Assembly (NCBI GenBank): GCA_964347145.1
Contig: CAYFXU010000001.1
Coordinates: 1 to 54,602, forward strand
Reading direction: 5' to 3'
Source: an uncultured Candidatus Bathyarchaeia archaeon
Lineage (GTDB): Archaea > Thermoproteota > Bathyarchaeia > Bathyarchaeales > Bathyarchaeaceae
DNA: 54,602 bases
Both the position numbers and the translations under genes were made by a program. A model generated the notes under the pieces. The model made no database searches and was not told the DNA's origin. It saw only the letters and a program-made list of their open reading frames with translations. Shown one piece after another: positions 23,328 to 37,954 of this stretch; within the stretch, counting starts at the first letter, position 1; each line of letters starts with the position of its first letter.

Positions 23328-24284
23328 TCATAAGCCCGCCATGTAGCCACTGACAACGTATGCTATGCACAACAGTAGACCCGTGAACAGGTGCACGAGA
23401 ACCGTACCAGCATTCGCCGGAATAAGCTTTCGCGGATCTCCATAATTTCTCCTGGCCACATACACTGCTCTTATGGCCAGTGGAGCCGTTAGAAATGAAA
23501 GTAAAGTGAGCACCGGCATCAGCGACAAGGAGACCCCCAACAGTATTACAGCGTAGGTGAAAAACATGAGCAGGCCATAGACATCCGCAGCCCGTTTTCT
23601 TCCAATTCTAGTTACCAAAGTCTTTTTTCCAGCCTTGGCGTCTGCGTAATAATCTGGAATTTCGTTTATCCAGAGCACTTCGAGAATCAATATTCCTAGA
23701 GGAATTGATGCAACTATTGGTTCTAAAGCTATAATTTGTGTTTGCACATAATAGCTTCCTGCGACTGTGAGTGGTCCGCAGTTAAGACCTACAATGAACT
23801 CGCCAATCCCACGTGGGGCCAACTGAGTCGTATAGAAATATCCTGAAAAGACTCCTGTAAGGCCGAGAACGACAATAACCCACCCTCGAGTCACAGCAAG
23901 GATTACTCCAATAAGGCCAGCGAAAATGAAGGAAATTAGAGAAGCGATGTACACTTTTCTGGGATTTAGGATACCTCTAGGAAGTAAGCCACTTCCGCCA
24001 CTGAATGGTGAACTAAAATCGGTGTCGACGAAATCGCATCCACTCTTGTAGTCAAAATAATCATTTGCAAGATTTGTTCCAGCATTTACACACACCGCGC
24101 CTATCAAACTCAAGACGAAATACGTCAGGTTAAAAGTTCTGAACGAAAACCAAGCTACTGCGGTGCCGAGGATCACTGGAATCAAAACGGCTGTAAAAAA
24201 GGGTGCTCTCAACTCCTTAATCCATACCAGAAAGGTTGCTGTCTTGGTTTGAGTTTTCCCTGACAGTTTTCGTCCCTCTAACAT
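23328..24284 (-). CDS. menA: UbiA-superfamily prenyltransferase, MenA-like (1,4-dihydroxy-2-naphthoate polyprenyltransferase type)
   Basis: 318 aa, polytopic. First Asp-rich motif NLANDYFDYKSG and second motif NEIPDYYADAKAGKKTLVTRIG are characteristic of the MenA subgroup. Confidence 0.75.
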   Translation of the reverse strand: MLEGRKLSGKTQTKTATFLVWIKELRAPFFTAVLIPVILGTAVAWFSFRTFNLTYFVLSLIGAVCVNAGTNLANDYFDYKSGCDFVDTDFSSPFSGGSGLLPRGILNPRKVYIASLISFIFAGLIGVILAVTRGWVIVVLGLTGVFSGYFYTTQLAPRGIGEFIVGLNCGPLTVAGSYYVQTQIIALEPIVASIPLGILILEVLWINEIPDYYADAKAGKKTLVTRIGRKRAADVYGLLMFFTYAVILLGVSLSLMPVLTLLSFLTAPLAIRAVYVARRNYGDPRKLIPANAGTVLVHLFTGLLLCIAYVVSGYMAGL

Positions 24285-24320
24285 GACACCTTTTTGATCT
24301 ATTGTGGTGAATCAAAACAT

Positions 24321-24343
24321 ATTAAATGTTATTAAATGTTATT
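24321..24343. repeat. Tandem 10-mer ATTAAATGTT x2.3 in the menA/PKD-gene divergent spacer
   Basis: attaaatgtt attaaatgtt att. On the minus strand this duplicates a TTTAAT TATA-like box 40-55 nt upstream of the menA ATG. Confidence 0.6.
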
Positions 24344-24632
24344 GCAAAAAAGCTTTCTACCAAGAATTAGACACTGACGGTTCTTTTCCATTTGCGTGTA
24401 TTGGCTCATACGTGCACGCAATAAAAAGTTGCGGCATGACCAGCACGAGATCTCGTTTCTTCTTTCCACCCCACTGCGGATGCAAAAGAGAAAGAACAGC
24501 TGCTGAGAAAAAAACAAATAGCTGCGCCAGAAGATTGAATAGATGATACTTCTATAACTTAACCTCACAAGATTTAATATATAAAATGGACCTCTAGGAT
24601 TTTAGAATGGAAGAGGTCAGGAGATTAGCAAT

Positions 24633-26525
24633 TTGAAGAAGTCCCGACTTTTGAATTTTCTCCTAATCGCATTGGCATTGTGTATGGGAATTGCCGCAGT
24701 GTTATACATGAAAACTCCGTCAGTAATAGCATGGCCAGATTTTGCCCAAGCCTGTAGCAGCTGTCATGATCTCGACGTTGGTGTCACAACCACTGCGAGT
24801 GTGTCAGAGTTGAGTTTGATGCCAGGTGAAACATCCCAAGCCTTTACAATAACGGTGAATGGAGCCGGATATCATCAAGGCCTCACTGGTTCTGCCCTTC
24901 GACTGCCTTTTGGCTGGACTGGTTCGGAAGATTATGCGTTTGGCAATTCAACAGAAACTGACGGAGAATGGTATTGGACGGAGACTCGCGAAGATCCAGA
25001 TCATATTGAAATGTTCACCGCCACAATAACGGTGCCTACCGATGCCACCGAGGGTGACTATACCATCGATGTGTGGGGAGCCGGAGACAACGTTGATGGC
25101 AATAAAGCGTCGGATTCGACGACGATCACAGTGACAGTCATCGTTGTTTCACCCCCTGTTGCTTCCTTCACTTTTTCACCTGAGTCTCCGATTGTGGATG
25201 AAGAAGTGACTTTCAACGCTTCTACTAGCCATGATGCTGACGGTACCATTGTAAGTTATGATTGGGATTTTGGTGATGGAACTACTGGTTCTGGAGTAAC
25301 TGTTGCTCATACATACACGGCTGACGGCAGCTACAGTGTTACATTAACCGTTACCGACAACGATGACCTATCAGACAGTGCTACTCAAGAAGTCACCGTG
25401 TCTACTCTCCAGCTTCAGCCTCCCGTTGCTTCCTTTACATTTGAACCTCAAACTCCAGTTGTGAATGAGACGGTGACATTCAACGCTACAGACAGCCATG
25501 ATCCAGATGGAACCATAATCAGCTACGATTGGGACTTCGGCGATGGCACAATCCTCAGCGAAATCAACCCAGTCGCAGCGCATGATTACGCAGTGGAAGG
25601 ATCATATCTCGTGAAACTCACCGTCGTGGATAATGATGCGCTGAACGACACAGACACAGCTTCTATAACTGTTTCATCGGCAATAGAACACGACATAAAG
25701 ATCACAAACGTCACAGCATTTCCGACAGAGGTAACGATTGGCGATTCATTGTCCATTAACGTCGATCTTGAAAATGAAGGCGATATGTCCGAGACCTTCA
25801 ACGTAACCTCATACTACGACACCACAGTGATCGAAACCAAAACCGTTACAGACTTGGCCTCACACAGCGAAGTAAGATTAAACTTCACATGGAATACTCT
25901 AGGAGTCTCTGAGGGAAACTACACAATAAAGGCCGTGGCAAGCACTGTTTCCGGGGAGACAGATACCGATGACAACTCATATATCGACGGCACAGTCAGC
26001 GTTACTTTCGCCCTAATTGGCAAGGCATCTGTGGATCTTGACCCGGATACGTTAAACCTTAAGAGCCATGGCAGATGGGTAAGTTGTTACATAGAGCTTC
26101 CTGAAGGCTATGATGTGGATGATGTTGACCGAGCAACGATACTGTTGAATGGAACCATTCCAGTTGATCCGTTCTGGGTTGATAAGCCCCTTGAATCTGT
26201 CGTTGGAGACCACGATAGTGACACAATTCTTGACTTGATGGTTAAGTTCAATAGAATGTCGGTAAGTGACTATCTTCTTGATCATAACGTAGCGTTTGGA
26301 AACGTGACTCTGACATTAACAATGCAACTCTACGATGGTACACCATTCGAAGGCAGCGACACAATCAAAGTGTTGCCGAAAGCAAGCCGAGTCTCTCTCA
26401 AAGGAGCGAAATCCTATGGACTTGTCCCTAACCCACTGATGTTCCTCTTTGCTGTAACCGTTCCAGTCGTTTTTGATAGAGCGAAGACAGTCAGGAAGAA
26501 TGTTTTCGCGGCGCGTCCATCATAG
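24633..26525 (+). CDS. Surface protein: signal/anchor, monohaem CxxCH + beta-sandwich module, 2x PKD, CARDB-like, Ig-like domain, C-terminal hydrophobic anchor
   Basis: N-terminal TM LLNFLLIALALCMGIAAVLYM; haem motif CSSCH. Two PKD repeats (VSYDWDFGDGT...YSVTLTVTDND; ISYDWDFGDGT...YLVKLTVVDND). CARDB-like INVDLENEGDMSETFNV. C-terminal PLMFLFAVTVPVVF. TTG start. Confidence 0.85.
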   Translation: MKKSRLLNFLLIALALCMGIAAVLYMKTPSVIAWPDFAQACSSCHDLDVGVTTTASVSELSLMPGETSQAFTITVNGAGYHQGLTGSALRLPFGWTGSEDYAFGNSTETDGEWYWTETREDPDHIEMFTATITVPTDATEGDYTIDVWGAGDNVDGNKASDSTTITVTVIVVSPPVASFTFSPESPIVDEEVTFNASTSHDADGTIVSYDWDFGDGTTGSGVTVAHTYTADGSYSVTLTVTDNDDLSDSATQEVTVSTLQLQPPVASFTFEPQTPVVNETVTFNATDSHDPDGTIISYDWDFGDGTILSEINPVAAHDYAVEGSYLVKLTVVDNDALNDTDTASITVSSAIEHDIKITNVTAFPTEVTIGDSLSINVDLENEGDMSETFNVTSYYDTTVIETKTVTDLASHSEVRLNFTWNTLGVSEGNYTIKAVASTVSGETDTDDNSYIDGTVSVTFALIGKASVDLDPDTLNLKSHGRWVSCYIELPEGYDVDDVDRATILLNGTIPVDPFWVDKPLESVVGDHDSDTILDLMVKFNRMSVSDYLLDHNVAFGNVTLTLTMQLYDGTPFEGSDTIKVLPKASRVSLKGAKSYGLVPNPLMFLFAVTVPVVFDRAKTVRKNVFAARPS

Positions 26526-26548
26526 AATTTCGTGTGCATGCGCCAAAG

Positions 26549-27220
26549 CTATACGCTTTTGCCGTAGTTTCCAGCGAGAGCAATAAAGTCGTCGTAGTCA
26601 ACGTCGCCGTCGGCGTCGAAGTCCGTGGCCTGAACAAAGGCTGGATCTCCGCTGCTAGATCCGTAGGCTCCAGCCAAAACTATAAAGTCGTCGTAGTCAA
26701 CATCTCGGTCGCCATCGCAATCACCAGGAACGCTCACAACTATAGTCAAAGAAGCCGTGTTCCAGAGGTCGTCCTGATCTTTTCTCCCATCACCATCACC
26801 TGAGAAGCCAGCAACATGCATAGTCACACTTCCATAAGTTGAAGGCGATGTCCAATCAAATGACCAGCTTATTTGCGACATTCCAGCGACGGTTTGTACG
26901 ATTTCTGTTTCCAGCAATTGAGTATTTGTTGAATCCGTAACGGCAAGCGTACCGTTGGTAATTGAAACATCCAAACCGTTAGCTGCTAGTGGCCCACCAC
27001 TCACAGTGACAGTGTAAGCATACGTCGTATCAGGTACTACAATAGTTCGCCCAGAGATTGTAACTCCTACGCTTGGGCTGAAATTTGAAGAGTGGCAGGT
27101 GCATCCGACCGTGGAGTACCCTGAGATTCCATCGCTCTTGGCTAGAATCGTAGTGGAAACTGCCATAAAAGATACAAAGAGAATAACAAATGCCGAAATT
27201 AAAGCTTCAAGTTTATTCAT
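26549..27220 (-). CDS. Secreted monohaem CxxCH + beta-sandwich module fused to a C-terminal double dockerin-like repeat
   Basis: Signal peptide ALISAFVILFVSFMAVS; haem motif GCTCHS. Two Ca-binding-type repeats: DCDGDRDVDYDDFIVLAGAYG and DADGDVDYDDFIALAGNYG. Confidence 0.8.
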   Translation of the reverse strand: MNKLEALISAFVILFVSFMAVSTTILAKSDGISGYSTVGCTCHSSNFSPSVGVTISGRTIVVPDTTYAYTVTVSGGPLAANGLDVSITNGTLAVTDSTNTQLLETEIVQTVAGMSQISWSFDWTSPSTYGSVTMHVAGFSGDGDGRKDQDDLWNTASLTIVVSVPGDCDGDRDVDYDDFIVLAGAYGSSSGDPAFVQATDFDADGDVDYDDFIALAGNYGKSV

Positions 27221-27456
27221 TTTTCTCCCTCAGCAAATTAGTATGATTGTTATGACACTTATAAACATTAAGCTTGTCCCTTTCTAGGCACGCATGTGTG
27301 CAGCCGTTTTTCTTGCCAGTTGGTTTGGCTTGTCTATCAAGCTTTTGTGGGTACTTTGAAGATTTTGGGATCTTCGTTCTTCTATTCTTTTCAGTTTCAT
27401 TCTTTGCAAGAACGAGAATTTCAAGACCGCCGATAGAACTAGTTAGACGGAGTCAC

Positions 27457-28143
27457 CTACTCTTCTAACACAAATTTGAAAGTCAAATTCGCCACGGCTA
27501 CAACAGAAAGCAGAAAGGCAAGGAGTAATCTTAATTCCGACATTACGTCTACTGAAGCGGCACTGTTTATGATTTTGACGGTCGCCAGAACCGACGGAAT
27601 AAGCACGGGGACGCAAACGGGAAAAAGTATAAAGGATAGAAGGAGCGTTTTTCCCTCTGAAAACATAACGAGACCGGAAACAAAGGAACCAGCTATTGAC
27701 AGATCAGTAACCCCGAGTATTAAGATAAGCAGAAAATCCAAAAGTCCTCCAGGGATCTTGAGATTCAAGAATACAAAAGAGAAGGGAAGCATCACTCCTT
27801 CCACAAGGAGAAGTAGCACCATAGCGTAGAGGATCTTTCCAAAAAGTATTGATGCCGGTGAGCATGGGAGGGTTTTGAGGCCTCCAAGAGTTCCTCGATC
27901 CATCTCTCTAGTGAAAGACGTCGTGAAGGTTAAAACGCTGGCGAAGAAAAGGATTATCCACAAAGCTGCTGAAGTCACCTCTGGACTAGCAGTTATGGCA
28001 CCACCCCAAGCAAAACTGCAAATGAGAATTGAACTCACTGAAAAGGTTAGAATAGATAGGATTTCATAGGCTCTCTTGAACTCCACCGCAAGATCTTTTG
28101 CAGCTATTCTAAAAGCCGCTGAGAAAAAACCCATGAGTGTCAC
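27457..28143 (-). CDS. ccmB: Haem exporter permease CcmB
   Basis: 228 aa with 6 hydrophobic helices. GTG start forms a GTGA overlap with the ccmA stop. Sits in the expected ccmAB position. Confidence 0.85.
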   Translation of the reverse strand: MTLMGFFSAAFRIAAKDLAVEFKRAYEILSILTFSVSSILICSFAWGGAITASPEVTSAALWIILFFASVLTFTTSFTREMDRGTLGGLKTLPCSPASILFGKILYAMVLLLLVEGVMLPFSFVFLNLKIPGGLLDFLLILILGVTDLSIAGSFVSGLVMFSEGKTLLLSFILFPVCVPVLIPSVLATVKIINSAASVDVMSELRLLLAFLLSVVAVANLTFKFVLEE

Positions 28144-28781
28144 CTGAAAAAGGTGTCTTGAACCAGTTTTCCTTTTTCAAGAAAAAGGCTCCTTTTGCAG
28201 AGTTGTTTTGCCCATTCAACTGAGTGGGATGACACTAACAGAGTTTTTCCTTTTAGAGTCTTGAGGTAACTCACTAAAAAGTTTCGGGTTTCTTCATCCA
28301 ATCCAGCGAAAAGTTCGTCAAGCAAAATTAGGTCTGGGTTATGAATTAATGCCCTGGCTATGTCTGCCCTTTTCCTCAAACCATACGACAATTGCTTCAC
28401 GGGAACCTTGCGCCAACTCTTCAAATTTAAGAAGTCAATTAATTCCGGGTCGTCTTGGTCCACAGAGAAAAGCCTTCCGTAAAACCGCAAATTTTCTTCG
28501 ACACTGAGTTCGTCATAGAGAAAACTTTCGTGAGCCACGAAGCCTATTCGCTTTCTCACAATCTCACCGTCCTTAAAGGCATTCCGCCCGTGAATCTTTA
28601 CTACGCCAGATGATGGAAGAACGTGCGTAGCTAGGATCCTCATCAACGTTGACTTTCCCGCTCCGTTAGGACCCAAGACAGCTACGGATTCGCCTTCATC
28701 GATTTCAATTGTGAACGGCTTCAGGGCCCATATATAACCGTACTTTTTTGAGACATTGAGAATTTCAACAGCGACAGTTAT
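28140..28781 (-). CDS. ccmA: ABC ATPase CcmA; the start is probably a non-canonical AUA
   Basis: Walker A GPNGAGKST, signature LSYGLRKR, Walker B LILLDE. The track ORF starts inside Walker A at a TTG. The in-frame upstream sequence ITVAVEILNVSKKYGYIWALKPFTIEIDEGESVAV is the conserved ABC N-terminus. It contains no ATG/GTG/TTG. GGAGG-N8-ATA is present at 28794..28779. Confidence 0.8.
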   Translation of the reverse strand: MTVAVEILNVSKKYGYIWALKPFTIEIDEGESVAVLGPNGAGKSTLMRILATHVLPSSGVVKIHGRNAFKDGEIVRKRIGFVAHESFLYDELSVEENLRFYGRLFSVDQDDPELIDFLNLKSWRKVPVKQLSYGLRKRADIARALIHNPDLILLDELFAGLDEETRNFLVSYLKTLKGKTLLVSSHSVEWAKQLCKRSLFLEKGKLVQDTFFR

Positions 28782-28813
28782 TGTCCCGTCCTCCTCGTCT
28801 ATGTGATTCGACT

Positions 28814-29296
28814 TTATTCATGCTTTCTTTTCAAGGTCATGGACACAACTGTGCCGACAATCGCTCCAGTTCCCAACAGGATGGCTGCCATAAACATGGG
28901 GTCGCCAAGCAACGATTTTCCTTCTCCCTCGTATTTGGAAGGGCATTTAACAAGCATATCGTATCCCTCAATGGTGCCTCGAGAAACGAGTTTTCCAATT
29001 ACAACGACCTGTTCGGCTTCTTGGAAGTTATCAGGCGGGCTTCCCGTGTAATTCACTTTGATCGCAGATTCTTCGTCAATGAGGTTGAAAACCATAGAGC
29101 GGTTTTTGCGGGAGACGGATCCGTTGGAAATTGTCCCCAACACTTGGATGTCTTCGTTGAGGTAAGTCGAGCTGTTTCTCACCACCTGAGACACCGTCAA
29201 GTAGGGGTTGATGTATGAAGAAAAGGCGTCGTATGCCAGTACACCACTGAGAACGATAAGAACGATGACGATGATGTAGGTGTACTTGATCTTGAT
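28814..29296 (-). CDS. ccmE: Haem chaperone CcmE, archaeal Cys variant; the start is probably a non-canonical AUC
   Basis: OB-fold region with CPSKY (28931..28945) in place of HxxxY. The required N-terminal TM anchor YTYIIVIVLIVLSGVLAY is in frame upstream of the track start. No canonical start codon precedes it. GGAGG-N8-ATC is present at 29309..29294. Confidence 0.8.
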   Translation of the reverse strand: MKIKYTYIIVIVLIVLSGVLAYDAFSSYINPYLTVSQVVRNSSTYLNEDIQVLGTISNGSVSRKNRSMVFNLIDEESAIKVNYTGSPPDNFQEAEQVVVIGKLVSRGTIEGYDMLVKCPSKYEGEGKSLLGDPMFMAAILLGTGAIVGTVVSMTLKRKHE

Positions 29297-29297
29297 C

Positions 29298-29426
29298 TCA
29301 AGTGCCTCCTTTTTCCAGGTCCACCAACCTTTTCCTGAGGTCAGAGAGTCGTCTGGTGAGCCAGATAGAAACGATTAAAATGGATCCCCAATAGATTGCT
29401 GAGACAAGGAAAAGCTCAAACTCCAA
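29298..29426 (-). CDS. ccmD: CcmD-like small membrane protein (not in ORF track)
   Basis: 42 codons, translated by hand: MEFELFLVSAIYWGSILIVSIWLTRRLSDLRKRLVDLEKGGT. One TM followed by a basic tail. TTG start preceded by GGAGG-N8. Lies exactly between ccmC and ccmE. Confidence 0.6.
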   Translation of the reverse strand: MEFELFLVSAIYWGSILIVSIWLTRRLSDLRKRLVDLEKGGT

Positions 29427-29430
29427 CCTT

Positions 29431-30111
29431 TCACCCTCCTCTTTCGTAGGCTAAGACATCAACTCGTTTTTGAAGAGACCGAACATCATGAGTCATCCTT
29501 AACAGATATATGTAAACGAGAGAACTCGCGATGAGATTTAAAAGTAGTGTTTCCATCATCGGCGGAGTTATTGAAAGGTCCAGGCTCAATCCTCCAGTTA
29601 CAGGAAGAGGATGAAGCGACTGCCAAAGTCTAATGGACAAATAGCTCAGTGGAATCGTGGAGAAGGCAAGAACATTATATACTGCACTAGTTAACGCCCG
29701 CTTTTCAACGTTTCCGATAGAGAGTCGCAGGGAAACATAGCCCATGTAGGCTATCCACAAGATAAGCGTGGTTGTCTCCCGCGGATCCCAATTCCAGTAC
29801 ACTCCCCAAGCAACGTTTGCCCAAATGGAACCCGTTATCAACGCCACGACTCCGTACAAAAGCCCCAAAATGGCTGAAACTTCCGCCAAACTGTCATATG
29901 CGATTTTTCTTTTGACCAAAAACAATATGCTTGCCAGCAATGAAACGCCCAGTGTGAGATAACAGACCCAAGCGGCGGGTGTGTGAATGTAGAAGATTCG
30001 ATAAAGATCTCCCATAGTCTTCTCTGGAGGAGCAGCAACAAAAGCAGCGTAACTCGCAATAATGTTTACGACCACGGTAATAGAAAGGTAAATATAATCC
30101 CGGATTATCAT
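29431..30111 (-). CDS. ccmC: Haem lyase/exporter subunit CcmC
   Basis: Trp-rich WWD motif WGVYWNWDPRETTTLILW. 226 aa, polytopic. Confidence 0.9.
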   Translation of the reverse strand: MIIRDYIYLSITVVVNIIASYAAFVAAPPEKTMGDLYRIFYIHTPAAWVCYLTLGVSLLASILFLVKRKIAYDSLAEVSAILGLLYGVVALITGSIWANVAWGVYWNWDPRETTTLILWIAYMGYVSLRLSIGNVEKRALTSAVYNVLAFSTIPLSYLSIRLWQSLHPLPVTGGLSLDLSITPPMMETLLLNLIASSLVYIYLLRMTHDVRSLQKRVDVLAYERGG

Positions 30112-30214
30112 TAACCTCTCCTCGCTTCACAGAAATATTCCAATCATAACTATAAAAAGTTTAAAAACAACTTGACGGATTGCAAGGCAACTCGATCGTT
30201 TGAGGGAAACCAGG

Positions 30215-32176
30215 ATGGAAACCGAAGAACTGTTCCTAGTCTTCGCTTGCCTTCTACTATTCTTCGACTTGATTCAATCGTCAAAGGTCAAGCCCCGTGA
30301 GAGGAAGAAACTTGAATACGGATTCTATGCGTCAATTCTAGCATGTGGGCTTATCGTCGCCTCGTATTTAATGCTTTTGCAGGCCTTCTTGAAGGACGAT
30401 TTTACATTAAGAGTAGTCTACTCGTATAGTTCGTCGAGCTTGCCGACCTCCTTCAAGGTTTATGCCACGTGGGCTGGCATGAGCGGTTCAATGCTCTTCT
30501 TGACGTTTCTTATGACCATCGTATACTTTGCCTACAGGTTCAAGACGTATGAGGAAAGCGGTTCTTTTCGATTAATCGCCTACAGGATACTGGATTTCAT
30601 TCTCATCTTTTTCTTGCTCCTCACCTTGATAAACAGTCCGTTTGAACGATTTCAGGGAGCGCCAATGGATGGCCAGGGTCTTAATCCCTTGTTGCAAACC
30701 TTCTGGATGTTTATCCATCCACCTGTAGTATTCTCGGGTTACGTCCTTGTCACTCTTGCATTTGCTCTGGTTCTGGCGAGAATGAAGACTGGAGAAAAAG
30801 TGGAAGGTACGTTGCTAAAGCTTTCTCTCCAAGGAGCGTGGTTGCTCTTGACTCTTGGAAACGCCATTGGAGGTTTGTGGGCTTATGAGGTGTTGGGTTG
30901 GGGCGGATACTGGGCTTGGGACCCAGTTGAAACCGCGTCGCTATTGCCGTGGTTGGCTCTCACGGCGTATTTTCACCTTGGTCCAGTCTCCAAAAAGGGT
31001 AAAAGCCTAGCGGGTGAATTCATGATTCTTTTAACTTTTGCAACTGTGATTTTCACCACTGCTTTGACTCGAGGCGGGTTGGCCGTGTCGGTTCACGCGT
31101 TCGGAGCCTCGCCCCTTGGACCGGCTCTCCTTCTTCTGACTCTCGTCATGATTGTCTATTTCTTCTATTTAAAGAGAGGAATAGAGAAGCCGCTATTTTC
31201 TTTAGAGGTTGAAAAATCTTCCCTTTACTCGGTGTCTTTTTTCGCAGGGTATTGGTCTTTAATCTTTGTTTTCCTCATTTGTTTCTGGGGGGTAGCCTTC
31301 CCAGTTATTGGGGGAATCTTTCTGGAAAATCCTATGGCCACTGGCATGGACTTCTATAACAACTGGAATTTTCCCTTTGTATTGGTCTTTGTTGCAGCGT
31401 TGGTTGGCTGCAGCATGTACGAGAGAATAGGTTTCAAGGAGTTTGCGATACTACTGGCCGGTGCGTTGGGCGCCGGCGCCGTATTAGTTCAGATGCAGTG
31501 GCCAACACCCCATATATTGGCGAATCTAGGGATTCCACTTTTGATTGTTTCGCTGTTTGCTGTAGTATACCGGCTTGTTCAGGTTCTTGGGAGGAAGAAA
31601 AGATCTCTTCGTCTGTTCGGGAGAAGTCTTCTCCACTTTGCGATCATAATCACGTTGATAGGTGTCTTCTTCAGCTCCACCGCCAAGCTTGTAAGCGGCG
31701 ATCTTCCGGCGAAACCAAACACCACCATAGAAACGTTAGGGCTAACAATAGAGTTGAAGAACTTCACCGTTCACAACGGCACTGGAAACGTTCACTCCAT
31801 GGATTTCGGACGGTGCATCCCAGAACATTCAGCGTTGAAAATGGATGTCACAATTAAACAGGCAGGAAACATCTACCATGGAGCTCTGTGGATTCGCTAT
31901 TACCCCGTTTATGGAATCGTATCTGGACCGTCGATAATTGGCACTTCGACAGGAGATATATACATTCGCATGCATCACACAGAATCAATGTATAACTCGC
32001 TGGTGCAAGCTCTTGGTGGTGAGAAAGTTCTTCCTGAGGATTTGGTGGTCAGCGTGGAGAGGATTCCCATGGTTCATCTTGTTTGGGCCGGAGTAACACT
32101 GCTTAGCATCGGGATGGCTATGCCATTGATTAAGGAGATCGTGAGACCGATGCCCAAAAAAGCTAGCAGTGATTGA
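30215..32176 (+). CDS. ccmF: Cytochrome c haem lyase CcmF
   Basis: WWD motif GGLWAYEVLGWGGYWAWDPVETASLLPW. About 650 aa, polytopic. I prefer ATG 30215 (GAGGGA 7 nt upstream) over the track TTG at 30200. Confidence 0.9.
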   Translation: METEELFLVFACLLLFFDLIQSSKVKPRERKKLEYGFYASILACGLIVASYLMLLQAFLKDDFTLRVVYSYSSSSLPTSFKVYATWAGMSGSMLFLTFLMTIVYFAYRFKTYEESGSFRLIAYRILDFILIFFLLLTLINSPFERFQGAPMDGQGLNPLLQTFWMFIHPPVVFSGYVLVTLAFALVLARMKTGEKVEGTLLKLSLQGAWLLLTLGNAIGGLWAYEVLGWGGYWAWDPVETASLLPWLALTAYFHLGPVSKKGKSLAGEFMILLTFATVIFTTALTRGGLAVSVHAFGASPLGPALLLLTLVMIVYFFYLKRGIEKPLFSLEVEKSSLYSVSFFAGYWSLIFVFLICFWGVAFPVIGGIFLENPMATGMDFYNNWNFPFVLVFVAALVGCSMYERIGFKEFAILLAGALGAGAVLVQMQWPTPHILANLGIPLLIVSLFAVVYRLVQVLGRKKRSLRLFGRSLLHFAIIITLIGVFFSSTAKLVSGDLPAKPNTTIETLGLTIELKNFTVHNGTGNVHSMDFGRCIPEHSALKMDVTIKQAGNIYHGALWIRYYPVYGIVSGPSIIGTSTGDIYIRMHHTESMYNSLVQALGGEKVLPEDLVVSVERIPMVHLVWAGVTLLSIGMAMPLIKEIVRPMPKKASSD

Positions 32177-32225
32177 AAGTCACTAATGCTTCTACATTAG
32201 ATGCGGTCGTCCTGTCGAAAAACAA

Positions 32226-32239
32226 ATGATTATTATCAT
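32226..32239. promoter_or_regulatory. Inverted repeat ATGAT-TATT-ATCAT, 8 nt upstream of a TTTAAATA box (32248-32255) of the octahaem cytochrome gene
   Basis: Read directly from the sequence. The geometry (IR, then TATA, then about 59 nt to the ATG) matches the site upstream of hdrA-mvhD. Confidence 0.4.
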
Positions 32240-32306
32240 AAGTAAGATTTAAATATCCTGAATTAGAATAAACGTTATTCTCTAGGGCAGGCTGAGGGGA
32301 GATCAG

Positions 32307-33809
32307 ATGAAAAAAGGCAAGAAGACGCAGTTATTTCTATTCATGATCGTAATTCTTGTAGGAATGTCACTATCGTTCTCAAGGTACAAGACATCCGCCG
32401 TCAATGGAGGTTCCGAATACGTAGGTGCTGAATCGTGCGCGGCATGCCACCCCAACGTTTATGAAGGTTGGAATCAGACCAACCACGCCTATGCGGTTAG
32501 GCTCATCCAAAACGCATCAGGTAACTTCTATAGTGTTGGCTCAACCAGTAATAGAGCAGGGACGCCCAGTCGAGTATATAATGAAACACGTTTTAGGGAT
32601 TCATGCCGCAACTGCCATGTTACTGGGGGAAATGATTTTGATCCATTGGGAGCAGCCAATCAGTCATGGCCTGAGATGACCACTGACCCAGAGAAATTCC
32701 TGAACATACAATGCGAAGTGTGTCACGGACCGCATCAGGAAGGACATTCAAGTCCGGATGTCCAAATGGTTCTCGATTACTCTGCAACGCTTTGTGAACT
32801 ATGTCATGTCCCCGGATCTTCCCACGACAATTCCTATTGGCAGAGTGCACATGCCCAGAGCTTAACTGATCTTCTAGATTCAGGTCATGCAGCTGACTAT
32901 TGCCTTAGCTGTATGACAGCTCAAGGTTCTCTAGGAAAGGACATATCTCTAAACACCACGAATCTGGAGAGTGTTTCATGTGTCACTTGTCATGACCCCC
33001 ACAGTCATACATATGACGCTCAACTTAGATACGAAGAATCAACAGAACTGTGTGGTCAGTGTCACTCTCAGGCTGAAGTCTTCGAAAACAGTGCACACTC
33101 TATGGCAGGATTGGAATGTACAAGCTGTCATGGCCAGGGTACACATTTTGGCCACGGTGCTGTAAGCCCCATGATTAATCACACTTGGGGGGTATACGGA
33201 ATGTACTATCCCTATAACCAAACAACCGCTGAAGAACCAATTGTATGCTCAACATGTCACACTCAATCCTGGGCTACGTCGCAACTAGGGGTAATTCAGG
33301 GGTTGACAACAGAACTCGTAACCAACGTTACTCAGGCCATCGACAACGCGAAGGCTACTCTCACTATTGCAAACCAAACAAGCGGAGTGAACCAAACAGA
33401 AATCAATCAATTACTGGCCATGGTTGAAGTGGCGGAGGACCACATCCACGACGTGGAAAGAGATAGCAGCGAAGGTTTCCACAATCCAGAACAAACCTTC
33501 GCAATTCTGAGCGCAGCGGCACACCTAGCAAGTGAAGCAGAATCTACGGCGCTAGAAGCCAGAGCCGCCGCTTTAGCCAGCGAAGCAACAACACTTGGAA
33601 CTCAAGTTTCGAGTCTTCAAAACCAAGTCACATCACTTCAAAATCAAACATCCACGCTTCAATCGGATATCGAAGGTTTGGAAGAAAAAATCGGTGGCCT
33701 GGAATCAGCGGCAGAAACAGTTCCTTATCTATACGGAGGATTGGGCCTAGCCATAGGCTTCATCGTCGGAGCGGCAATCGTATTCCTTGTTCGACGAGGG
33801 AAACCATAA
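32307..33809 (+). CDS. Membrane-anchored octahaem cytochrome c
   Basis: Eight CxxCH motifs (CAACH, CRNCH, CEVCH, CELCH, CVTCH, CGQCH, CTSCH, CSTCH) plus one CLSCM. N-terminal signal/TM. C-terminal heptad-like region (LQNQVTSLQNQTSTLQSDIEGLEEKIGGLE). TM anchor GLGLAIGFIVGAAIVFLV followed by RRGKP. Confidence 0.9.
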   Translation: MKKGKKTQLFLFMIVILVGMSLSFSRYKTSAVNGGSEYVGAESCAACHPNVYEGWNQTNHAYAVRLIQNASGNFYSVGSTSNRAGTPSRVYNETRFRDSCRNCHVTGGNDFDPLGAANQSWPEMTTDPEKFLNIQCEVCHGPHQEGHSSPDVQMVLDYSATLCELCHVPGSSHDNSYWQSAHAQSLTDLLDSGHAADYCLSCMTAQGSLGKDISLNTTNLESVSCVTCHDPHSHTYDAQLRYEESTELCGQCHSQAEVFENSAHSMAGLECTSCHGQGTHFGHGAVSPMINHTWGVYGMYYPYNQTTAEEPIVCSTCHTQSWATSQLGVIQGLTTELVTNVTQAIDNAKATLTIANQTSGVNQTEINQLLAMVEVAEDHIHDVERDSSEGFHNPEQTFAILSAAAHLASEAESTALEARAAALASEATTLGTQVSSLQNQVTSLQNQTSTLQSDIEGLEEKIGGLESAAETVPYLYGGLGLAIGFIVGAAIVFLVRRGKP

Positions 33810-33877
33810 AAGTTATAGTCCTTTCTCCCCTTCCTATTTTCAAAGAATTGAAACAGTGCGTGCGGTGAAAGACTGAG

Positions 33878-34714
33878 ATGGTCACCAAAAAGGGGTTAAT
33901 CATTCTCGGAATCCTCTTAGCACTTAGCTTCTCACTGACTCTAACCGCGTCTCTCTATGCAACGCCGCAGTTCGGGGAGGATTGTCTATCTTGTCATACG
34001 GGAGGCGGAATATCAGTCACCTCAAATGTTACTGACACTGTGGAAGTTAACGCTTCAAGGTCGTTCGGAGTGCAGGTTGACGCGGAGGGGGACTCGCAAG
34101 AACTCACTGTGATATGGTCAGATGTTGCCAACAATCCCATCTTCGCTTTCACACCGTCCAAGGTCATTGACAACGACCTCAACGACAACGATCCAACGGT
34201 AAGCAAGGTGAGGAGCATTTTTAACATCATTGCACCAGCAGTTCAGGGAGAATATACGGTACAGGTTTTCGCGGCAGGTGGCGGAGGAAAAGGTGGGACA
34301 CTTACCTTTCAGGTGACCGTTACAACTGAAGAACCTGGCATCGAAAACCTGTTGCCTAATGCATATTTTCTTCACACTAGGCGTGGCATGACAATAGAAT
34401 TCGTAGATCGATCTTGGGATGCGGATGGCAACATTACCTCTTGGCTTTGGGACTTCGGAGACAACACCAATTCAACAGAGCAAAACCCAACCCACACATT
34501 CACAGAAATTGGCACATACACTGTAACGCTCACCGTTACCGACGACAAAGAAGGCAGCGACATTCAATCTCAAACATTTCGAGTTCCTTCGAAAGAAGAA
34601 CTCTTCCGGCTCTGGACATTACAAGTCGCTATCGGATCCTTAATGATAATCTTAACTTTGCTTTTTGCCATTGGGATAGCCAGCGCTCGCTTCAAGAGAG
34701 GGAAGCAAAGTTGA
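33878..34714 (+). CDS. Monohaem CxxCH + beta-sandwich module, PKD domain, C-terminal TM anchor
   Basis: Signal peptide LIILGILLALSFSL; haem motif CLSCH; PKD repeat ITSWLWDFGDNT...YTVTLTVTDDKEG; TM anchor LQVAIGSLMIILTLLFAIGIA. Confidence 0.85.
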   Translation: MVTKKGLIILGILLALSFSLTLTASLYATPQFGEDCLSCHTGGGISVTSNVTDTVEVNASRSFGVQVDAEGDSQELTVIWSDVANNPIFAFTPSKVIDNDLNDNDPTVSKVRSIFNIIAPAVQGEYTVQVFAAGGGGKGGTLTFQVTVTTEEPGIENLLPNAYFLHTRRGMTIEFVDRSWDADGNITSWLWDFGDNTNSTEQNPTHTFTEIGTYTVTLTVTDDKEGSDIQSQTFRVPSKEELFRLWTLQVAIGSLMIILTLLFAIGIASARFKRGKQS

Positions 34715-34777
34715 ATAAGACTAGAAGAGTGAATCTAAAGGAAGTCATGTTCATTGTGACTATTGGAGGGTGTAAAA

Positions 34778-35422
34778 GTGGTTGATCTCGGAGCCCTACA
34801 CTCTATGCTAATAGAAATGCACGGAGGAATGCTCACACTGGCAGCTGTCAGCACTCTTGCAATGGTTGTAGCCCGACTTCACCGAAGGTTAAGAAGAACC
34901 AGCAAATGGTACGGCGTTTTTTGGCCTTTAGATTCGTTGATCGAGAAATTAGCCCGATACACAGAACCGACAGCCTATGTGGCGGCAATAGGCGGAGTTG
35001 TCGGCCTTGTGGTGTCTGCAATCGTTGGTTTTTATGTCTGGCCTACTGAAACTCTCATGAACTCTTCTCTGGGATTAACCAAAGTCATGTTCTCCATTTT
35101 CGCCACAGAACTTTGGATCCTCTTCGTTGTAATTAGATCAAAATATAGCGAAGACTTGTGGAAAAATGGTGCATTAGCGACCGTATACGTGTTCGCAGGA
35201 TTTGCTGGGTTCTTTTTCACGGTTCTAACAGGAAGCTTTGGGGGGCACATGGCAGGTAAAGGAAGTGTCCTTGATCCGGTTTATGAGCTTCTTAACGTAG
35301 ATCCAGAAGCTTTTTGGGTCATTGGGTTTGACATGGTGCCCGTGCTAATCGCCGTTGCCTTCATTGAGATAGTCATCTTTTTCGCTCTCTTCCTACGTTT
35401 TCGATCGCGAGCGAGAGCTTGA
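34778..35422 (+). CDS. Five-TM membrane protein, DUF2231-like
   Basis: GTG start preceded by GGAGG-N8. His-containing first helix region (ALHSMLIEMHGGML) and GSFGGHMAGKG loop resemble DUF2231 proteins. The assignment is by eye only. Confidence 0.6.
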   Translation: MVDLGALHSMLIEMHGGMLTLAAVSTLAMVVARLHRRLRRTSKWYGVFWPLDSLIEKLARYTEPTAYVAAIGGVVGLVVSAIVGFYVWPTETLMNSSLGLTKVMFSIFATELWILFVVIRSKYSEDLWKNGALATVYVFAGFAGFFFTVLTGSFGGHMAGKGSVLDPVYELLNVDPEAFWVIGFDMVPVLIAVAFIEIVIFFALFLRFRSRARA

Positions 35423-35901
35423 AAAACCCGTGGTGCCTGAACTTGACGGGGATTTTTGGAACGCGAGCTTCAATCTATTCGGATCTAGGCTTGGTTCTAG
35501 AGATATTGACCACGTTGCTCTTCACAATCGGGTATTTCTATGAAAAGAGAAAAGGAAGACATTGCGTCGTAATGGGCGCTGCTGTGACAACAAACATTGT
35601 TTTTGTGATCAGCTACATGGTGAGTAGGTTGGTCAAGGAGGAGGTCCCCTCTCCGCCGTCACAGTTCGCTACTCTCTATCGAGGGGTCGTCGTCCCCCAT
35701 GGGATCCTTTCGGTTTTAGTCCTTGTCCTAGCGATTTCTCAGGCTTTCCTTGCATATCAATGGCGGAAAAAGAAGAATGATGTCGTTGCGTTAGGGAAAA
35801 GAAGGCCCACCCACAGAAAACTTGGTCTCACAACTCTTATTTTGTGGTACATCAGCTTCCTGAGCGGAACAATCGTATACGCGATACTATATGTCTTGTA
35901 G
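35419..35901 (+). CDS. DUF420-like four-TM membrane protein
   Basis: C-terminal HRKLGLTTLILWYISFLSGTIVYAILYV resembles the DUF420 signature. Start overlaps the upstream stop (CTTGA). Confidence 0.55.
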   Translation: MKNPWCLNLTGIFGTRASIYSDLGLVLEILTTLLFTIGYFYEKRKGRHCVVMGAAVTTNIVFVISYMVSRLVKEEVPSPPSQFATLYRGVVVPHGILSVLVLVLAISQAFLAYQWRKKKNDVVALGKRRPTHRKLGLTTLILWYISFLSGTIVYAILYVL

Positions 35902-35946
35902 AGGACGTGTCGCACCACGCAATGGTTGCGCATGCATTTGTTTTCA

Positions 35947-36672
35947 TTAGGGCGCGCGCGTGTTCCATTCGCATCTGTGTTCACAATAGGAGTCGCCATG
36001 TCCTTTACATGTCAATCGAGTTATTTTCACTTTCCCACCAATAGCATTGGAGACTCCTTCATGGAACGCCTCATGGAGTATATCACACATCATTTCTGGC
36101 ATTTTGACAGCAAGTTCAAGAAATAAGCAGTTGTGTACGCGATACACAGCAAGATTTTTTTCGATCTCCACAATCTCTGGCTCTGCCCCGTTTTCTTCTA
36201 GATATCCTTTGATGAAGAGATTTGCAAAAGCTTCAGGAGACCACTCTTTCACGGCATGTCTGGATTCGATTTCCTTTACCACGCTTTCACCCATGTTGTT
36301 TCCAACTCTTTTCAAAAGTCTGCCAGCTCTTTTTGATCCAATCAATAATTGAAGGGTTCTTATCATAACGTCGGATAGAGTTAGATAACGGCGTTTCGGA
36401 TACCCCACAATCGTCGGCCTTTCGGCGATCCTGTAATAGACTTTTGGTCTTCCCACAGTTCCACTTTTTTCTTGGTAACTTTCAATGAACCCTGAATCTT
36501 CCAAAGACTGCAAGTGGTGTCGTATGGTGATTGGCTTAAGATTCACTGACTCTGCAATTTCATCGACACTCAAAGGCTTTTTGTGCAGTAGCTTCAGGAT
36601 ATCAAGTCTCGAAACACTTGACAACGCTTCGTAAGCCTTTCTTTCCTTCAAGCCGTTCACTTCATTTTCCAT
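35947..36672 (-). CDS. ArsR-family wHTH regulator with C-terminal V4R-like sensor domain
   Basis: N-terminal SRLDILKLLHKKPLSVDEIAESVNLKPITIRHHLQSLEDSGFI. C-terminal Cys-containing domain (RLTCKGHGDSYCEH) is typical of V4R / methanogen-output-type domains. Confidence 0.75.
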   Translation of the reverse strand: MENEVNGLKERKAYEALSSVSRLDILKLLHKKPLSVDEIAESVNLKPITIRHHLQSLEDSGFIESYQEKSGTVGRPKVYYRIAERPTIVGYPKRRYLTLSDVMIRTLQLLIGSKRAGRLLKRVGNNMGESVVKEIESRHAVKEWSPEAFANLFIKGYLEENGAEPEIVEIEKNLAVYRVHNCLFLELAVKMPEMMCDILHEAFHEGVSNAIGGKVKITRLTCKGHGDSYCEHRCEWNTRAP

Positions 36673-36689
36673 GTTGGAATATTAGATAA

Positions 36690-36845
36690 TCAAAATCGTC
36701 ATATATATTCTTTATTATTTTCATCTAAATTCTATCAGTCTTATTTATCATATTTATTATTATTATCATACAATCTTATCGTTGCCATCGATTAATGTTC
36801 CCCATCCGTATCATTTAGTATTTATCGTTATTTGTGTCATATACT
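36690..36845. promoter_or_regulatory. AT-rich spacer with about 9 iterated T(T)ATC(A/G)T-type boxes upstream of the ArsR/V4R regulator gene
   Basis: Examples: cgtcat 36696, tatcag 36733, ttatcat 36754, ttatcat 36770, ttatcgt 36776, tatcat 36809, ttatcgt 36822, gtcata 36836. Confidence 0.35.
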
Positions 36846-36931
36846 TGACAAATTTTTGCCTATTTTACGCGCGTTGCGAAAGATGATTCGATCGCCCACC
36901 AACGCCTTTTGGCAATCTATGTTCACGTTCT

Positions 36932-37954
36932 TCAACCGTTTGACTTCTGCGCAGACACTCCATTTAGTCTGAGGGTTTTTGCCATTTGAGCAAGATGCGA
37001 CTTGAATTTGGTGTCTTTGAGGGGCTGAATATCAACGATTGATTTGTCAACGTATTTGTTTATTTTCTTTCTGCAATAACCAAGAGAGTCATTGGTTTTT
37101 AGCTTCTCCAAAATCATGTTTAGGGCACTCTTCTTAGAAGTCTTGTTTTTACTTGACAAGATTTGAAGGTTCTGGAGAAGCCTTTCTCTTTCGTCCAAGC
37201 TGACTGACCTAAAAAGATGGATCAGGGGAAGGCTAATTCGGCGTTTTCTAAGATCTTTTGGAATGCCATCTCTCAAAGAGGTTATGTCTGAAAGGTCATC
37301 GCTTAGTTGGTAAGCCATTCCGAAATGTTCTCCAAAATTTGCCAGGCAACTAACTTCAAGGTCAGAGCCACCTCCTGCTATGGCTCCACAAATAGTTGCA
37401 GCTTGAAATAGTGAGGCAGACTTCTTTCTTATTTTCTCTAGATATTCCTTTTCAGACATCTCAGTCGATTTTATTGACACATCCATGTATTCGCCATCAC
37501 AAAGCGCTAGACCAGTTTCTGATGCGATTTTCAGTATTTCTTTACCATAATCGGCTGTCAAGAGAATTGCGAGGGATATCATGGCGTCTCCGACTAGAAT
37601 GGCCTCATTTACAGACCATTTTTCATGAACCGAAGGGACATCGCGTCTAAACTTGTCTTGGTCTAGAATGTCGTCGTGGACAAGAGTTGCGGTGTGTAAT
37701 AGTTCAACGGCTAGAGCCAACGGCATGACGTCTTCTCGGTTTCCTCCAACGCTTTCGGCACTGAGTATGACCATTAAAGGCCTTAATCTCTTTCCATGGG
37801 ATAGCAAGGCATAACCTATTTTCTCATAAAGTCGCAGGTCGGAAATTCTTGAAATAAGGCTTGAAAGTTCAGATTCTACTGAATGTCTCGTGCTTTCTAT
37901 GTACGACTGAAACTTCTTTTCATACGGTGCAACAAAGGCCCTAGTGACTGGCAT
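36932..37954 (-). CDS. trans-Polyprenyl diphosphate synthase (chain length not assignable)
   Basis: First Asp-rich motif LVHDDILDQD and second motif DDLSD. 340 aa. Confidence 0.9.
   Translation of the reverse strand: MPVTRAFVAPYEKKFQSYIESTRHSVESELSSLISRISDLRLYEKIGYALLSHGKRLRPLMVILSAESVGGNREDVMPLALAVELLHTATLVHDDILDQDKFRRDVPSVHEKWSVNEAILVGDAMISLAILLTADYGKEILKIASETGLALCDGEYMDVSIKSTEMSEKEYLEKIRKKSASLFQAATICGAIAGGGSDLEVSCLANFGEHFGMAYQLSDDLSDITSLRDGIPKDLRKRRISLPLIHLFRSVSLDERERLLQNLQILSSKNKTSKKSALNMILEKLKTNDSLGYCRKKINKYVDKSIVDIQPLKDTKFKSHLAQMAKTLRLNGVSAQKSNG

Follow-up and report, generated by a model that had tools for sequence, protein, structure and literature searches.

The stretch of DNA analysed here, referred to as the window, covers 54,602 nucleotides (54.6 kb) of a contig from an uncultured Candidatus Bathyarchaeia archaeon. 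At 23328-37954, from menA to a polyprenyl synthase gene, it carries an island of genes for cytochrome c maturation (Ccm), a large multihaem cytochrome, small surface proteins, the menaquinone tail, and a small membrane protein that is called DUF2231-like in the following. We interpret the island as a cytochrome-based respiratory branch of an archaeon; its candidate coupling module is undescribed, and the lineage had not been reported to have such a branch. It can be read as the outward branch of a menaquinone-linked electron-transport chain in which the DUF2231-like protein would be the quinone-interacting module. This reading is tentative and is held with slightly less than even confidence. 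The island suggests a way for fermenter-like Bathyarchaeia to respire outside the cell.

Gene calls in the window were based on a listing of open reading frames (ORFs) and on profile searches against Pfam and NCBIfam. The Pfam scan covered 50 window ORFs, which are nearly all non-nested ORFs of at least 110 amino acids; ORFs 46168-46671, 46623-46958, and 50805-51167, all beyond the island, lay outside it. Every gene named in a first-pass annotation of this DNA was found in its place by these means. Rieske protein, cytochrome b, NrfD, HdrE/DsrM-type proteins, and Fpo/Fqo had no Pfam match among the 50 ORFs, which bears out the earlier claim that the window has no classical quinol:cytochrome c module. 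Homology to bc, NrfD/PsrC, NrfH/CymA, or CbcL/ImcH proteins was found neither by the Pfam and NCBIfam scans of window ORFs nor by Foldseek.

One genome per species was scanned with the 219-aa DUF2231-like family, and 22 loci were obtained. The closest were in Bathyarchaeia metagenome-assembled genomes (MAGs), and the more distant ones were in Thermoplasmatota, including Methanomassiliicoccales-related MAGs. One of the latter, locus L020 of a Thermoplasmata MAG, carries four paralogous multihaem modules at 2935-20567. In the first module, a 12-haem cytochrome is followed by cytochrome b. The second consists of two octahaem cytochromes, a choice-of-anchor-V-like protein, and then the DUF2231-like protein. 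The third has an octahaem cytochrome, a choice-of-anchor-V-like protein, and a 220-aa protein, followed by a Rieske protein and the N-part and C-part of cytochrome b. In the fourth, an octahaem cytochrome and a choice-of-anchor-V-like protein precede an NrfC-like 4Fe-4S protein and NrfD. The DUF2231-like protein of L020 occupies the slot taken by two classical quinol-oxidising modules behind the same type of cytochrome pair.

MenA or polyprenyl synthase is encoded within 10 kb of the DUF2231-like gene in eight loci (the window, L005, L007, L008, L011, L014, L016, and L018). The DUF2231-like protein was read as a quinone-interacting element mainly because of this linkage and the positional equivalence in L020. 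Two small membrane proteins had been proposed in the first-pass annotation to connect quinol with haem. For the DUF2231-like protein the proposal is plausible on these comparative grounds; for the DUF420 protein encoded next to it, it is not supported.

Gene order around the DUF2231-like gene was conserved in relatives, as the first-pass annotation had required. L005 had an identical order from menA to the HdrA-MvhD fusion gene, with 62-90% amino-acid identity (70-90% for most genes), and the core was retained in L006, L007, L008, and L015. In L005-L008 and L015, an OcwA-like cytochrome gene is followed by the gene of an anchored CxxCH protein and then by the DUF2231-like gene. The company of multihaem cytochromes recurs in a second phylum. 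Genes of homologous eight-CxxCH cytochromes flank the DUF2231-like gene in Thermoplasmatota at loci L019-L021, L023, and L024 (36-41% identity); in L022 such a gene lies 1.2 kb upstream on the opposite strand. The eight-CxxCH cytochrome was not found at L025, and ccm genes are near the DUF2231-like gene in both L022 and L025. Where the upstream gene was examined (L019-L022 and L025), the end of a choice-of-anchor-V gene meets or overlaps the start of the DUF2231-like gene.

Remote members of the family sit on short metagenome contigs. In five of them (L027, L028, L029, L031, and L032), the gene of an exported protein with a C-terminal transmembrane (TM) helix lies upstream and abuts or overlaps the DUF2231-like gene. 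Two of these five proteins have one CxxCH, and a third CxxCH protein is encoded downstream in L027. Small exported one-CxxCH proteins with a C-terminal TM helix were seen at L029 161-652, L027 1263-1799, and L031 1-453, and some of them match Temptin_C (PF24784).

The start of the DUF2231-like protein was placed at GTG 34778, where homologues begin with 'MVD'; a GGAGG lies at 34765-34769. This start is 63 nt past the stop of the 278-aa protein gene. The 'DUF2231' label itself falls below the Pfam threshold: the match to PF09990 scored 11.7 bits with a cut-off of 26.4, and 19 of 29 relatives match weakly (best E 9.8e-6). A full-text literature search for 'DUF2231' gave a single, unrelated paper and none on its function. 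There are at least 144 close homologues. An exhaustive hidden Markov model (HMM) search of 1.84 billion cluster representatives gave only 140 at E ≤0.001, so the family is rare. No informative Pfam domain was present in the ten longest of these 140.

In the A1 alignment of 29 close homologues, H13, E18, H20, E68, and H162 are invariant and H40 is nearly so. Across Thermoplasmatota and the remote members, H13, E18, K107, W133, S158, G160, S168, D/E171, and a few others are kept, and only H13 and E18 are near-universal in the wider family. Four of the six Thermoplasmatota copies have Thr at position 162, and H40 does not occur outside Bathyarchaeia. The AlphaFold model had five TM helices, with a predicted local distance difference test (pLDDT) score of 81.9. 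By the positive-inside rule, the N-terminus is outside and most of the universal polar residues are at the outer face. Foldseek found no significant match to this model in the PDB (lowest E 0.55; STEAP and cytochrome b561 came up weakly and were not used), and the family profile had no relatives among PDB sequences. The first-pass annotation had looked to conserved histidine ligands in the DUF proteins, and no conserved His pair was found in the wider DUF2231-like family. A b-haem site is not established, since there is neither a family-wide His pair nor a Foldseek or PDB relative. NrfD/PsrC-type subunits use a haem-less quinol site, and a haem-less quinol site is possible in the DUF2231-like protein as well.

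The lack of a conserved His pair and of any fold match to respiratory membrane subunits would also suit a non-redox role. The DUF2231-like protein would then serve the single-pass anchored surface proteins as a membrane scaffold, as a sensor, or as a factor in anchoring or assembly, and the true coupling enzyme would be encoded elsewhere in the genome, of which the gene inventory covers 54.6 kb. The constant partner of the family is any exported protein with a C-terminal TM helix, in some cases without CxxCH (L032), and the adjacent DUF420 gene belongs to an oxidase assembly factor family (PMC8239418). Such a role is considered unlikely. The DUF2231-like protein replaces the Rieske/cytochrome b and NrfCD of the paralogous L020 modules, its gene is linked to that of MenA or polyprenyl synthase (eight loci) and, at most loci in Bathyarchaeia, to an Hdr operon, and the strong conservation of buried polar residues (H13, E18, and K107) would be unusual for a passive scaffold.

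The large cytochrome is the second element of the proposed chain. A profile of 25 homologues was searched against the PDB and matched OcwA of Thermincola potens (6i5b) with E 5.5e-54, profile positions 33-411 aligning with chain residues 10-499, and OmhA of Carboxydothermus ferrireducens (6qvm) with E 3.3e-32. Besides eight CxxCH motifs, the protein has a ninth Cys pair, C199/C202, in 'CLSCM' (residues 199-203, window 32901-32915). The nine Cys pairs align 1:1 with the OcwA haem motifs, and CLSCM falls on OcwA haem 5. The first-pass description as an anchored octahaem cytochrome was right about an anchored multihaem cytochrome and has to be changed in the count, which is nine aligned sites. 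The ninth-site Cys pair is invariant in the 25 homologues; its fifth residue is M, H, K, or R, and one member has CxxCK. The layout comprises an extra c554-like N-terminal module and an NrfA-like helical C-domain. Between the NrfA-like helices and the TM helix are about 55 residues (about 415-470) with heptad-like repeats and a length that varies among homologues; judged by eye, this segment was read as a coiled-coil stalk.

The haem core of NrfA can be superimposed on haems 5-9 of OcwA, which puts haem 5 in the place of the active site; in OcwA, a His-His motif lies over the open distal position of haems 2 and 5 (PMC6703420). The window clade has a deletion where OcwA carries its haem-5 His-His motif. 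Because of this deletion and of CLSCM at haem 5, the special site of the window protein appears altered. From its sequence, the large cytochrome is identified as an OcwA-family member with an altered special site, and not as NrfA. An NrfA identity was rejected: the protein has no CxxCK, NrfA aligns with its C-terminal half only, and the c554-like N-terminal module goes beyond the five-haem architecture of NrfA. The OcwA/OmhA family was very poorly represented in databases according to a 2022 survey (PMC9250108). An exact-sequence look-up found no recorded gene with an identical product.

A catalytic reductase for a soluble N or S compound, such as nitrite, hydroxylamine, sulphite, or polysulphide, would make the island an ordinary quinol-dependent respiratory or detoxifying system. 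NrfA and octahaem nitrite reductases match the C-terminal half of the cytochrome profile (about 1e-21 to 1e-26), the open haem 5 at the NrfA active-site position is the counterpart of the ninth site, and the fifth residue of this site varies, including a CxxCK as in NrfA. A 73%-identical homologue is labelled a nitrite reductase subunit by NCBI. OcwA reduces iron oxides and shuttles, and also nitrite and hydroxylamine, slowly (PMC6703420). Against a soluble substrate stand CxxCM instead of CxxCK in the window protein, the loss of the distal His-His motif, the full-length kinship with OcwA/OmhA including the c554-like module, and the PKD, CARDB, and dockerin surface-type proteins encoded alongside. 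This explanation was judged improbable. The first-pass annotation had named clustering with soluble-substrate enzymes as a test, and the full-length relatives are instead the surface reductases OcwA and OmhA. Its proposal of extracellular electron transfer gains from this kinship and is weakened by the retention of the NrfA-haem-1-equivalent site with a variable proximal ligand.

The 278-aa protein encoded between the large cytochrome and the DUF2231-like protein is the putative anchored partner. Its position is occupied likewise in L005-L008 and L015, with a canonical CxxCH, and C36, C39, and H40 are retained in orthologues. Its AlphaFold model (pLDDT 67.6) had two tandem immunoglobulin-like (Ig-like) domains and a TM helix, with a weak N-domain (pLDDT 35-70). 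Foldseek gave PKD and tandem-Ig folds only; a cytochrome f-like fold was rejected on this result and was retained as a topological analogy. An exact look-up found this protein only on a 2.9-kb contig of run ERR2564001.

The choice-of-anchor-V N-domain (NF041895) is common to all three small surface proteins of the island, with 113 bits in the 223-aa protein and values below the cut-off in the 630-aa (21.6) and 278-aa (17.7) proteins. The three had been described in the first-pass annotation as monohaem proteins with PKD, CARDB, and dockerin domains. The domains were recovered by Pfam and, for the dockerin of the 223-aa protein, by a match to 2y3n_B (E 1.4e-6). A CxxCH is present in the 630-aa (CSSCH) and 278-aa (CLSCH) proteins, and the 223-aa protein has CTCH instead. 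No cohesin was detected in the window, despite this dockerin. A possible dockerin partner region is the stretch of residues 470-590 in the 630-aa protein, which has no family match.

The Thermoplasmatota partner proteins (about 335 codons) have a signal peptide, C-x(1-4)-C-H, Ig-like domains, and a C-terminal TM helix. Seven of the eight choice-of-anchor-V-like proteins taken from Thermoplasmatota, among them the ones encoded in sister modules of L020 and L023, matched NF041895. An HMM of these partners gave only a weak C-terminal match to window proteins, and the link between the window and Thermoplasmatota partners therefore rests on the shared NF041895 matches.

In more distant Bathyarchaeia, at least ten loci have no cytochrome within 10 kb of the DUF2231-like gene. 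In most of them the gene is on its own and divergent from an HdrA-MvhD/HdrC/HdrB operon, with a gap of about 150-200 bp; this is so in L002/L013, L003, L009-L012, L016, L018, and L026. At L014 the gene and the operon are separated by a UbiA gene and small ORFs. Polyprenyl synthase and MenA-like genes are found just past HdrB in L011, L016, and L018. Since most Bathyarchaeia copies adjoin Hdr and MenA genes with no cytochrome within 10 kb, the partnership of the DUF2231-like gene with cytochromes seems to be secondary and particular to one clade. Cytochrome-less copies are identical to cytochrome-linked ones at the near-universal positions, with few differences over 33 compared.

From these neighbourhoods it could be argued that the DUF2231-like protein primarily ties HdrA2BC/MvhD (and FrhB) to menaquinone, as in Qmo or HdrDE, and that the cytochromes, particular to one clade, provide a secondary output (or an input, should electrons enter from an external donor). 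The adjacency to Hdr and the MenA and polyprenyl synthase genes past HdrB point this way. So does the cytoplasmic face, where conservation of H40, E68, R125, and K127 is complete in Bathyarchaeia alone, although L022, L025, and several remote members also have E68 and R125. For the tie to Hdr itself, gene adjacency is the sole evidence. No Thermoplasmatota copy has an Hdr neighbour, and the DUF2231-like protein has no homology to HdrE, QmoC, or DsrM. This possibility was rated as quite improbable. The rival readings are not mutually exclusive.

At one of the cytochrome-less Bathyarchaeia loci (L003, 10839-14132), the DUF2231-like gene is directly followed by a CcmF gene and then by the gene of a six-helix polyferredoxin (Pfam Fer4_5). 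Fer4_5 is typical of NapH/CcoG-type membrane ferredoxins.

In the outward branch proposed here, menaquinone would be reduced at the inner face by the adjacent F420-/ferredoxin-linked Hdr complex or by an enzyme encoded elsewhere. Menaquinol would be bound by the outer-face polar pocket of the DUF2231-like protein (H13, E18, H20, K107, S158, and D171), and protons would be released outside. The anchored Cx(n)CH protein and the OcwA-like cytochrome would then receive the electrons. From the cytochrome these could go to Fe(III) or Mn(IV) minerals, to humic substances, to a syntrophic partner, or to a soluble oxidant at the haem-5 site. A redox loop of this type would conserve energy. The PKD/CARDB and dockerin choice-of-anchor-V proteins may be surface-displayed accessories, and the DUF420 protein may be a clade-specific helper, possibly in haem handling by analogy with CtaM. 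The ArsR-type regulator might control the gene set by redox state.

The outward reading is favoured by the family assignments, by the gene order kept within Bathyarchaeia, by its recurrence in Thermoplasmatota and the similar pairing in remote members, by the slot in L020, by the MenA and polyprenyl synthase linkage, and by the conserved polar residues lying mostly at the outer face. It is also favoured by the large cytochrome, whose closest solved relatives are experimentally characterised surface terminal reductases. Several points weigh against it. The DUF2231-like family has no family-wide His pair and no structural or PDB sequence relative. The cytochrome carries a stalk-like segment of about 55 residues, and the CxxCH of its partner is two Ig-like domains from the TM helix, so the haems may sit several nanometres off the membrane. 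Haem binding by the choice-of-anchor-V proteins is uncertain, given Cys spacings from CxCH to Cx4CH and a generic Ig-like fold. Most Bathyarchaeia copies of the DUF2231-like gene have no cytochrome within 10 kb and are conserved nonetheless; the core role of the protein may therefore not involve cytochromes. The 54.6-kb window holds no further menaquinone genes, its hydratases, thioesterase, and thiamine pyrophosphate (TPP) enzyme not being Men proteins. The direction of electron flow is not readable from sequence.

A bolder form of the outward reading was considered doubtful. In this form, the DUF2231-like protein and its Cx(n)CH partner would be a new minimal quinol:cytochrome c oxidoreductase that replaces Rieske/cytochrome b or NrfCD in archaea, and in Bathyarchaeia the DUF2231-like protein would also couple the flavin-based bifurcating complex HdrA2BC/MvhD to menaquinone.

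Features of the island and of the adjoining Hdr operon are collected in Table 1.

Table 1. Genes of the island and the neighbouring Hdr operon, with window positions and the basis of assignment
Feature	Position	Strand	Basis
MenA-type 1,4-dihydroxy-2-naphthoate polyprenyltransferase, UbiA family, about 8 TM helices	23328..24284	-	Pfam UbiA E 2.8e-31
630-aa exported protein: signal peptide, CSSCH at residue 41, two PKD, CARDB, C-terminal hydrophobic tail	24633..26525	+	Pfam PKD_4 4e-40, CARDB 2.1e-8
223-aa exported protein: signal peptide, CTCH, choice-of-anchor-V, dockerin	26549..27220	-	NF041895 E 1.2e-32, 113 bits
CcmB	27457..28143	-	Pfam CcmB E 5.5e-20
CcmA, ABC ATPase, 5' end uncertain	28140..28778	-	Pfam ABC_tran E 8.3e-29
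CcmE, Cys variant (CPSKY), C-terminal TM segment	28814..29200	-	Pfam CcmE E 8.7e-22
Candidate CcmD, 42 aa, one TM helix and basic tail	29298..29426	-	Position between ccmC and ccmE, shape
CcmC	29431..30111	-	Pfam Cytochrom_C_asm E 2.2e-31
CcmF/NrfE-family haem lyase, divergent from ccmC	30200..32176	+	Pfam E 4.5e-26
OcwA-family multihaem cytochrome c, 500 aa, C-terminal TM anchor	32307..33809	+	Profile against PDB, motif search
278-aa anchored protein: signal peptide, CLSCH, Ig-like domain, PKD, C-terminal TM helix	33878..34714	+	Pfam PKD_4 E 3.4e-19
DUF2231-like five-helix membrane protein, 219 aa	34778..35422 (ORF opens 34763)	+	Homologues, AlphaFold, synteny
DUF420 (CtaM-family) four-helix membrane protein, 160 aa	35419..35901	+	Pfam DUF420 E 1.5e-16, 61.3 bits (cut-off 30.5)
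ArsR-type winged-helix regulator, Cys/His-rich weakly V4R-like C-domain	35947..36672	-	Pfam HTH_5 E 9.2e-11
Trans-polyprenyl diphosphate synthase, probably long-chain	36932..37954	-	Pfam polyprenyl_synt E 1.7e-56
FrhB, HdrB, HdrC, HdrA2-type HdrA-MvhD fusion operon	38843..43843	-	Pfam FrhB_FdhB, CCG, Fer4, FlpD

The first-pass annotation had described a complete System I set, with ccmC-D-E-A-B on the minus strand and ccmF divergent. The set was confirmed: CcmB, CcmE, CcmC, and CcmF are clustered and have Pfam matches above the cut-off, CcmA was assigned by ABC_tran, and ccmD was assigned by position and shape. Two NCBIfam models, TIGR03145 (E 2.7e-60) and TIGR00353 (E 2.3e-57), also matched CcmF, each below its cut-off. 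The CcmH and CcmG families had no match among the scanned window ORFs. The CcmE translation contains 'VKCPSKYEG', which is CxxxY in place of HxxxY. In the archaeal variant of System I, CcmE has CxxxY for HxxxY and CcmH is absent. By its predicted proteins, the set is an archaeal-type System I, CcmABC(D)EF with a Cys-variant CcmE, for haem attachment to exported proteins. The longest ccmE ORF has no N-terminal TM helix and has the C-terminal hydrophobic segment 'FMAAILLGTGAIVGTVVSMTL' instead, the reverse of the usual bacterial topology. The first canonical start of ccmA, TTG 28676, lies just before Walker A, and upstream of it the frame remains open for some 135 nt, to 28811. This stretch (28676-28811) has a conserved coding counterpart in L005, which makes a non-canonical start codon likely.

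Both menaquinone-tail genes named in the first-pass annotation were verified. The UbiA-family protein passed NCBIfam menA TIGR00751 (112.7 bits, cut-off 102.15). Its ten top-scoring NCBIfam families were all MenA-type or close prenyltransferase models, with the other MenA equivalogs below the cut-off. The menA gene is kept in L005, L007, and L008, and more distant forms occur in L011, L014, L016, and L018. The best NCBIfam matches of the polyprenyl synthase were all below the cut-off. Its first Asp-rich motif lies within 'HTATLVHDDILD', with small residues at positions -4 and -5, which we take to indicate a long-chain product, that is, a quinone tail. No men/mqn ring-synthesis genes were found within the window. 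Two enoyl-CoA hydratases, a hotdog thioesterase, and a TPP enzyme were tried as MenB, MenI, and MenD and rejected, with scores far below the MenB, MenI, and acetolactate-synthase-type cut-offs.

DUF420 is CtaM, a haem-copper oxidase biogenesis factor (PMC8239418). The DUF420 gene was found only in the window, L001, L005, and L006. It was rejected as a core component, being absent from L007, L008, L015, and all more distant loci, and the earlier proposal of DUF420 as a quinone-to-haem candidate is not supported, the partnership not being conserved. Translational coupling of the DUF2231-like and DUF420 genes to the upstream genes, as first described, was overstated, since the DUF2231-like start follows the upstream stop at a distance and the DUF420 gene overlaps its upstream gene by 4 nt only if TTG 35419 is the start. 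For the regulator, the ArsR part of the original ArsR/V4R label stands, and the V4R match is weak (22.2 bits, cut-off 31). The ArsR-type regulator is conserved in L005, L006, L007, L008, and L015.

Hdr-type operons flank the island at 7798-12646 (+), 12666-21022 (-), and 38843-43843 (-), and the Pfam matches agree with the Hdr/MvhD/FrhB operons first noted on either side. The HdrA-MvhD fusion aligned over its full length with NCBIfam HdrA2 (846 bits, below the cut-off of 1100). At 12666-19573 (-), two giant HdrA-like proteins (1029 and 1008 aa) are encoded with a 261-aa MvhD-domain protein between them and HdrB and HdrC downstream. Each giant protein has two pyridine-nucleotide-disulphide-oxidoreductase stretches and several 4Fe-4S domains.

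Base composition was uniform over the island, and Rfam and tRNA scans found no RNA genes in the window. Thiolase, two enoyl-CoA hydratases, and 3-hydroxyacyl-CoA dehydrogenase, of beta-oxidation or butyrate type, are encoded at 114-1322 and 48236-50798. Together with the three Hdr clusters of the window, they suggest a source of reducing equivalents. A 300-aa protein at 52508-53410 (+) has two AsnC-type helix-turn-helix (HTH) units and a weak NirDL-like HTH match (Pfam E 2e-7). Judged by these domains, it could be an ordinary Lrp-type regulator, to which the NCBIfam result points (LysM/AsnC, below the cut-off), or else an AhbA/B-type sirohaem decarboxylase from the alternative haem pathway.

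Bathyarchaeia are among the most abundant archaea of anoxic sediments, and their redox balance is an open problem. The lineage was absent from the first-pass list of archaea with Ccm and multihaem cytochromes. A literature search on Bathyarchaeia and multihaem cytochromes or extracellular electron transfer, mostly at the level of titles and abstracts, found no such system. A study of 19 Bathyarchaeota MAGs reported that multihaem cytochromes were absent, that the quinone pathway was only partial, and that no electron sink was apparent, and it left redox balance unsolved (PMC9534799). A clade with Ccm, an OcwA-type surface cytochrome, and the menaquinone tail beside Hdr offers a concrete, testable respiratory route for Bathyarchaeia. 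If the bolder form of the outward reading is true, the quinone pool, and through it an external acceptor, would be the high-potential sink otherwise wanting in these non-methanogenic archaea, and part of Bathyarchaeia would gain respiratory electron disposal. The pair of DUF2231-like protein and partner is a candidate for the missing link from the quinone pool to OcwA-type cytochromes. The paralogous modules of L020 are a built-in comparison and a natural comparison set for archaeal quinol:cytochrome coupling. We know of no earlier description of CxxCM as a haem c motif; CxxC[M/H/K/R] at the haem equivalent to the NrfA active site would be an unusual attachment motif and bears on substrate recognition by System I.

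Among known systems, those with OcwA and OmhA (Thermincola potens and Carboxydothermus ferrireducens) share with the island the full-length kinship of the cytochrome, nine sites aligned 1:1, the c554-like plus NrfA-like layout, and the surface location. The island differs in its archaeal host, in CxxCM instead of CxxCH at site 5, in the loss of the distal His-His motif, and in a C-terminal TM helix on a stalk-like segment. To our knowledge, the choice-of-anchor-V and DUF2231-like proteins are unrelated to the Thermincola cytochromes. The bc1/b6f and NrfCD modules stand in L020 behind the same pair of cytochrome and choice-of-anchor-V protein as the DUF2231-like protein does. Cytochrome c1 and cytochrome f have a signal peptide, an N-terminal CxxCH, and a C-terminal TM helix, as has the anchored partner. 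Unlike these modules, the DUF2231-like protein has no sequence or fold similarity to them and no b-haem His pairs, and the partner is Ig-like and not of a cytochrome fold.

QmoABC and HdrDE resemble the island in an HdrA-like flavoprotein and MvhD domains beside a small membrane protein and quinone-biosynthesis genes. The membrane protein of the island is not HdrE- or QmoC-like, and its association with Hdr was inferred from adjacency alone. The 160-aa window protein is a member of Pfam DUF420, as is CtaM of Bacillus and Staphylococcus; unlike in the CtaM systems, no oxidase genes were found among the scanned window ORFs, and DUF420 is absent from most related loci. Anaerobic methanotrophic archaea (ANME), Methanoperedens, and iron-reducing Archaeoglobi have an archaeal System I, exported multihaem cytochromes with surface-type domains, and a dependence on quinone or phenazine. 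The island differs from these systems in its phylum, its OcwA-type cytochrome, and its candidate coupling subunit of an undescribed family.

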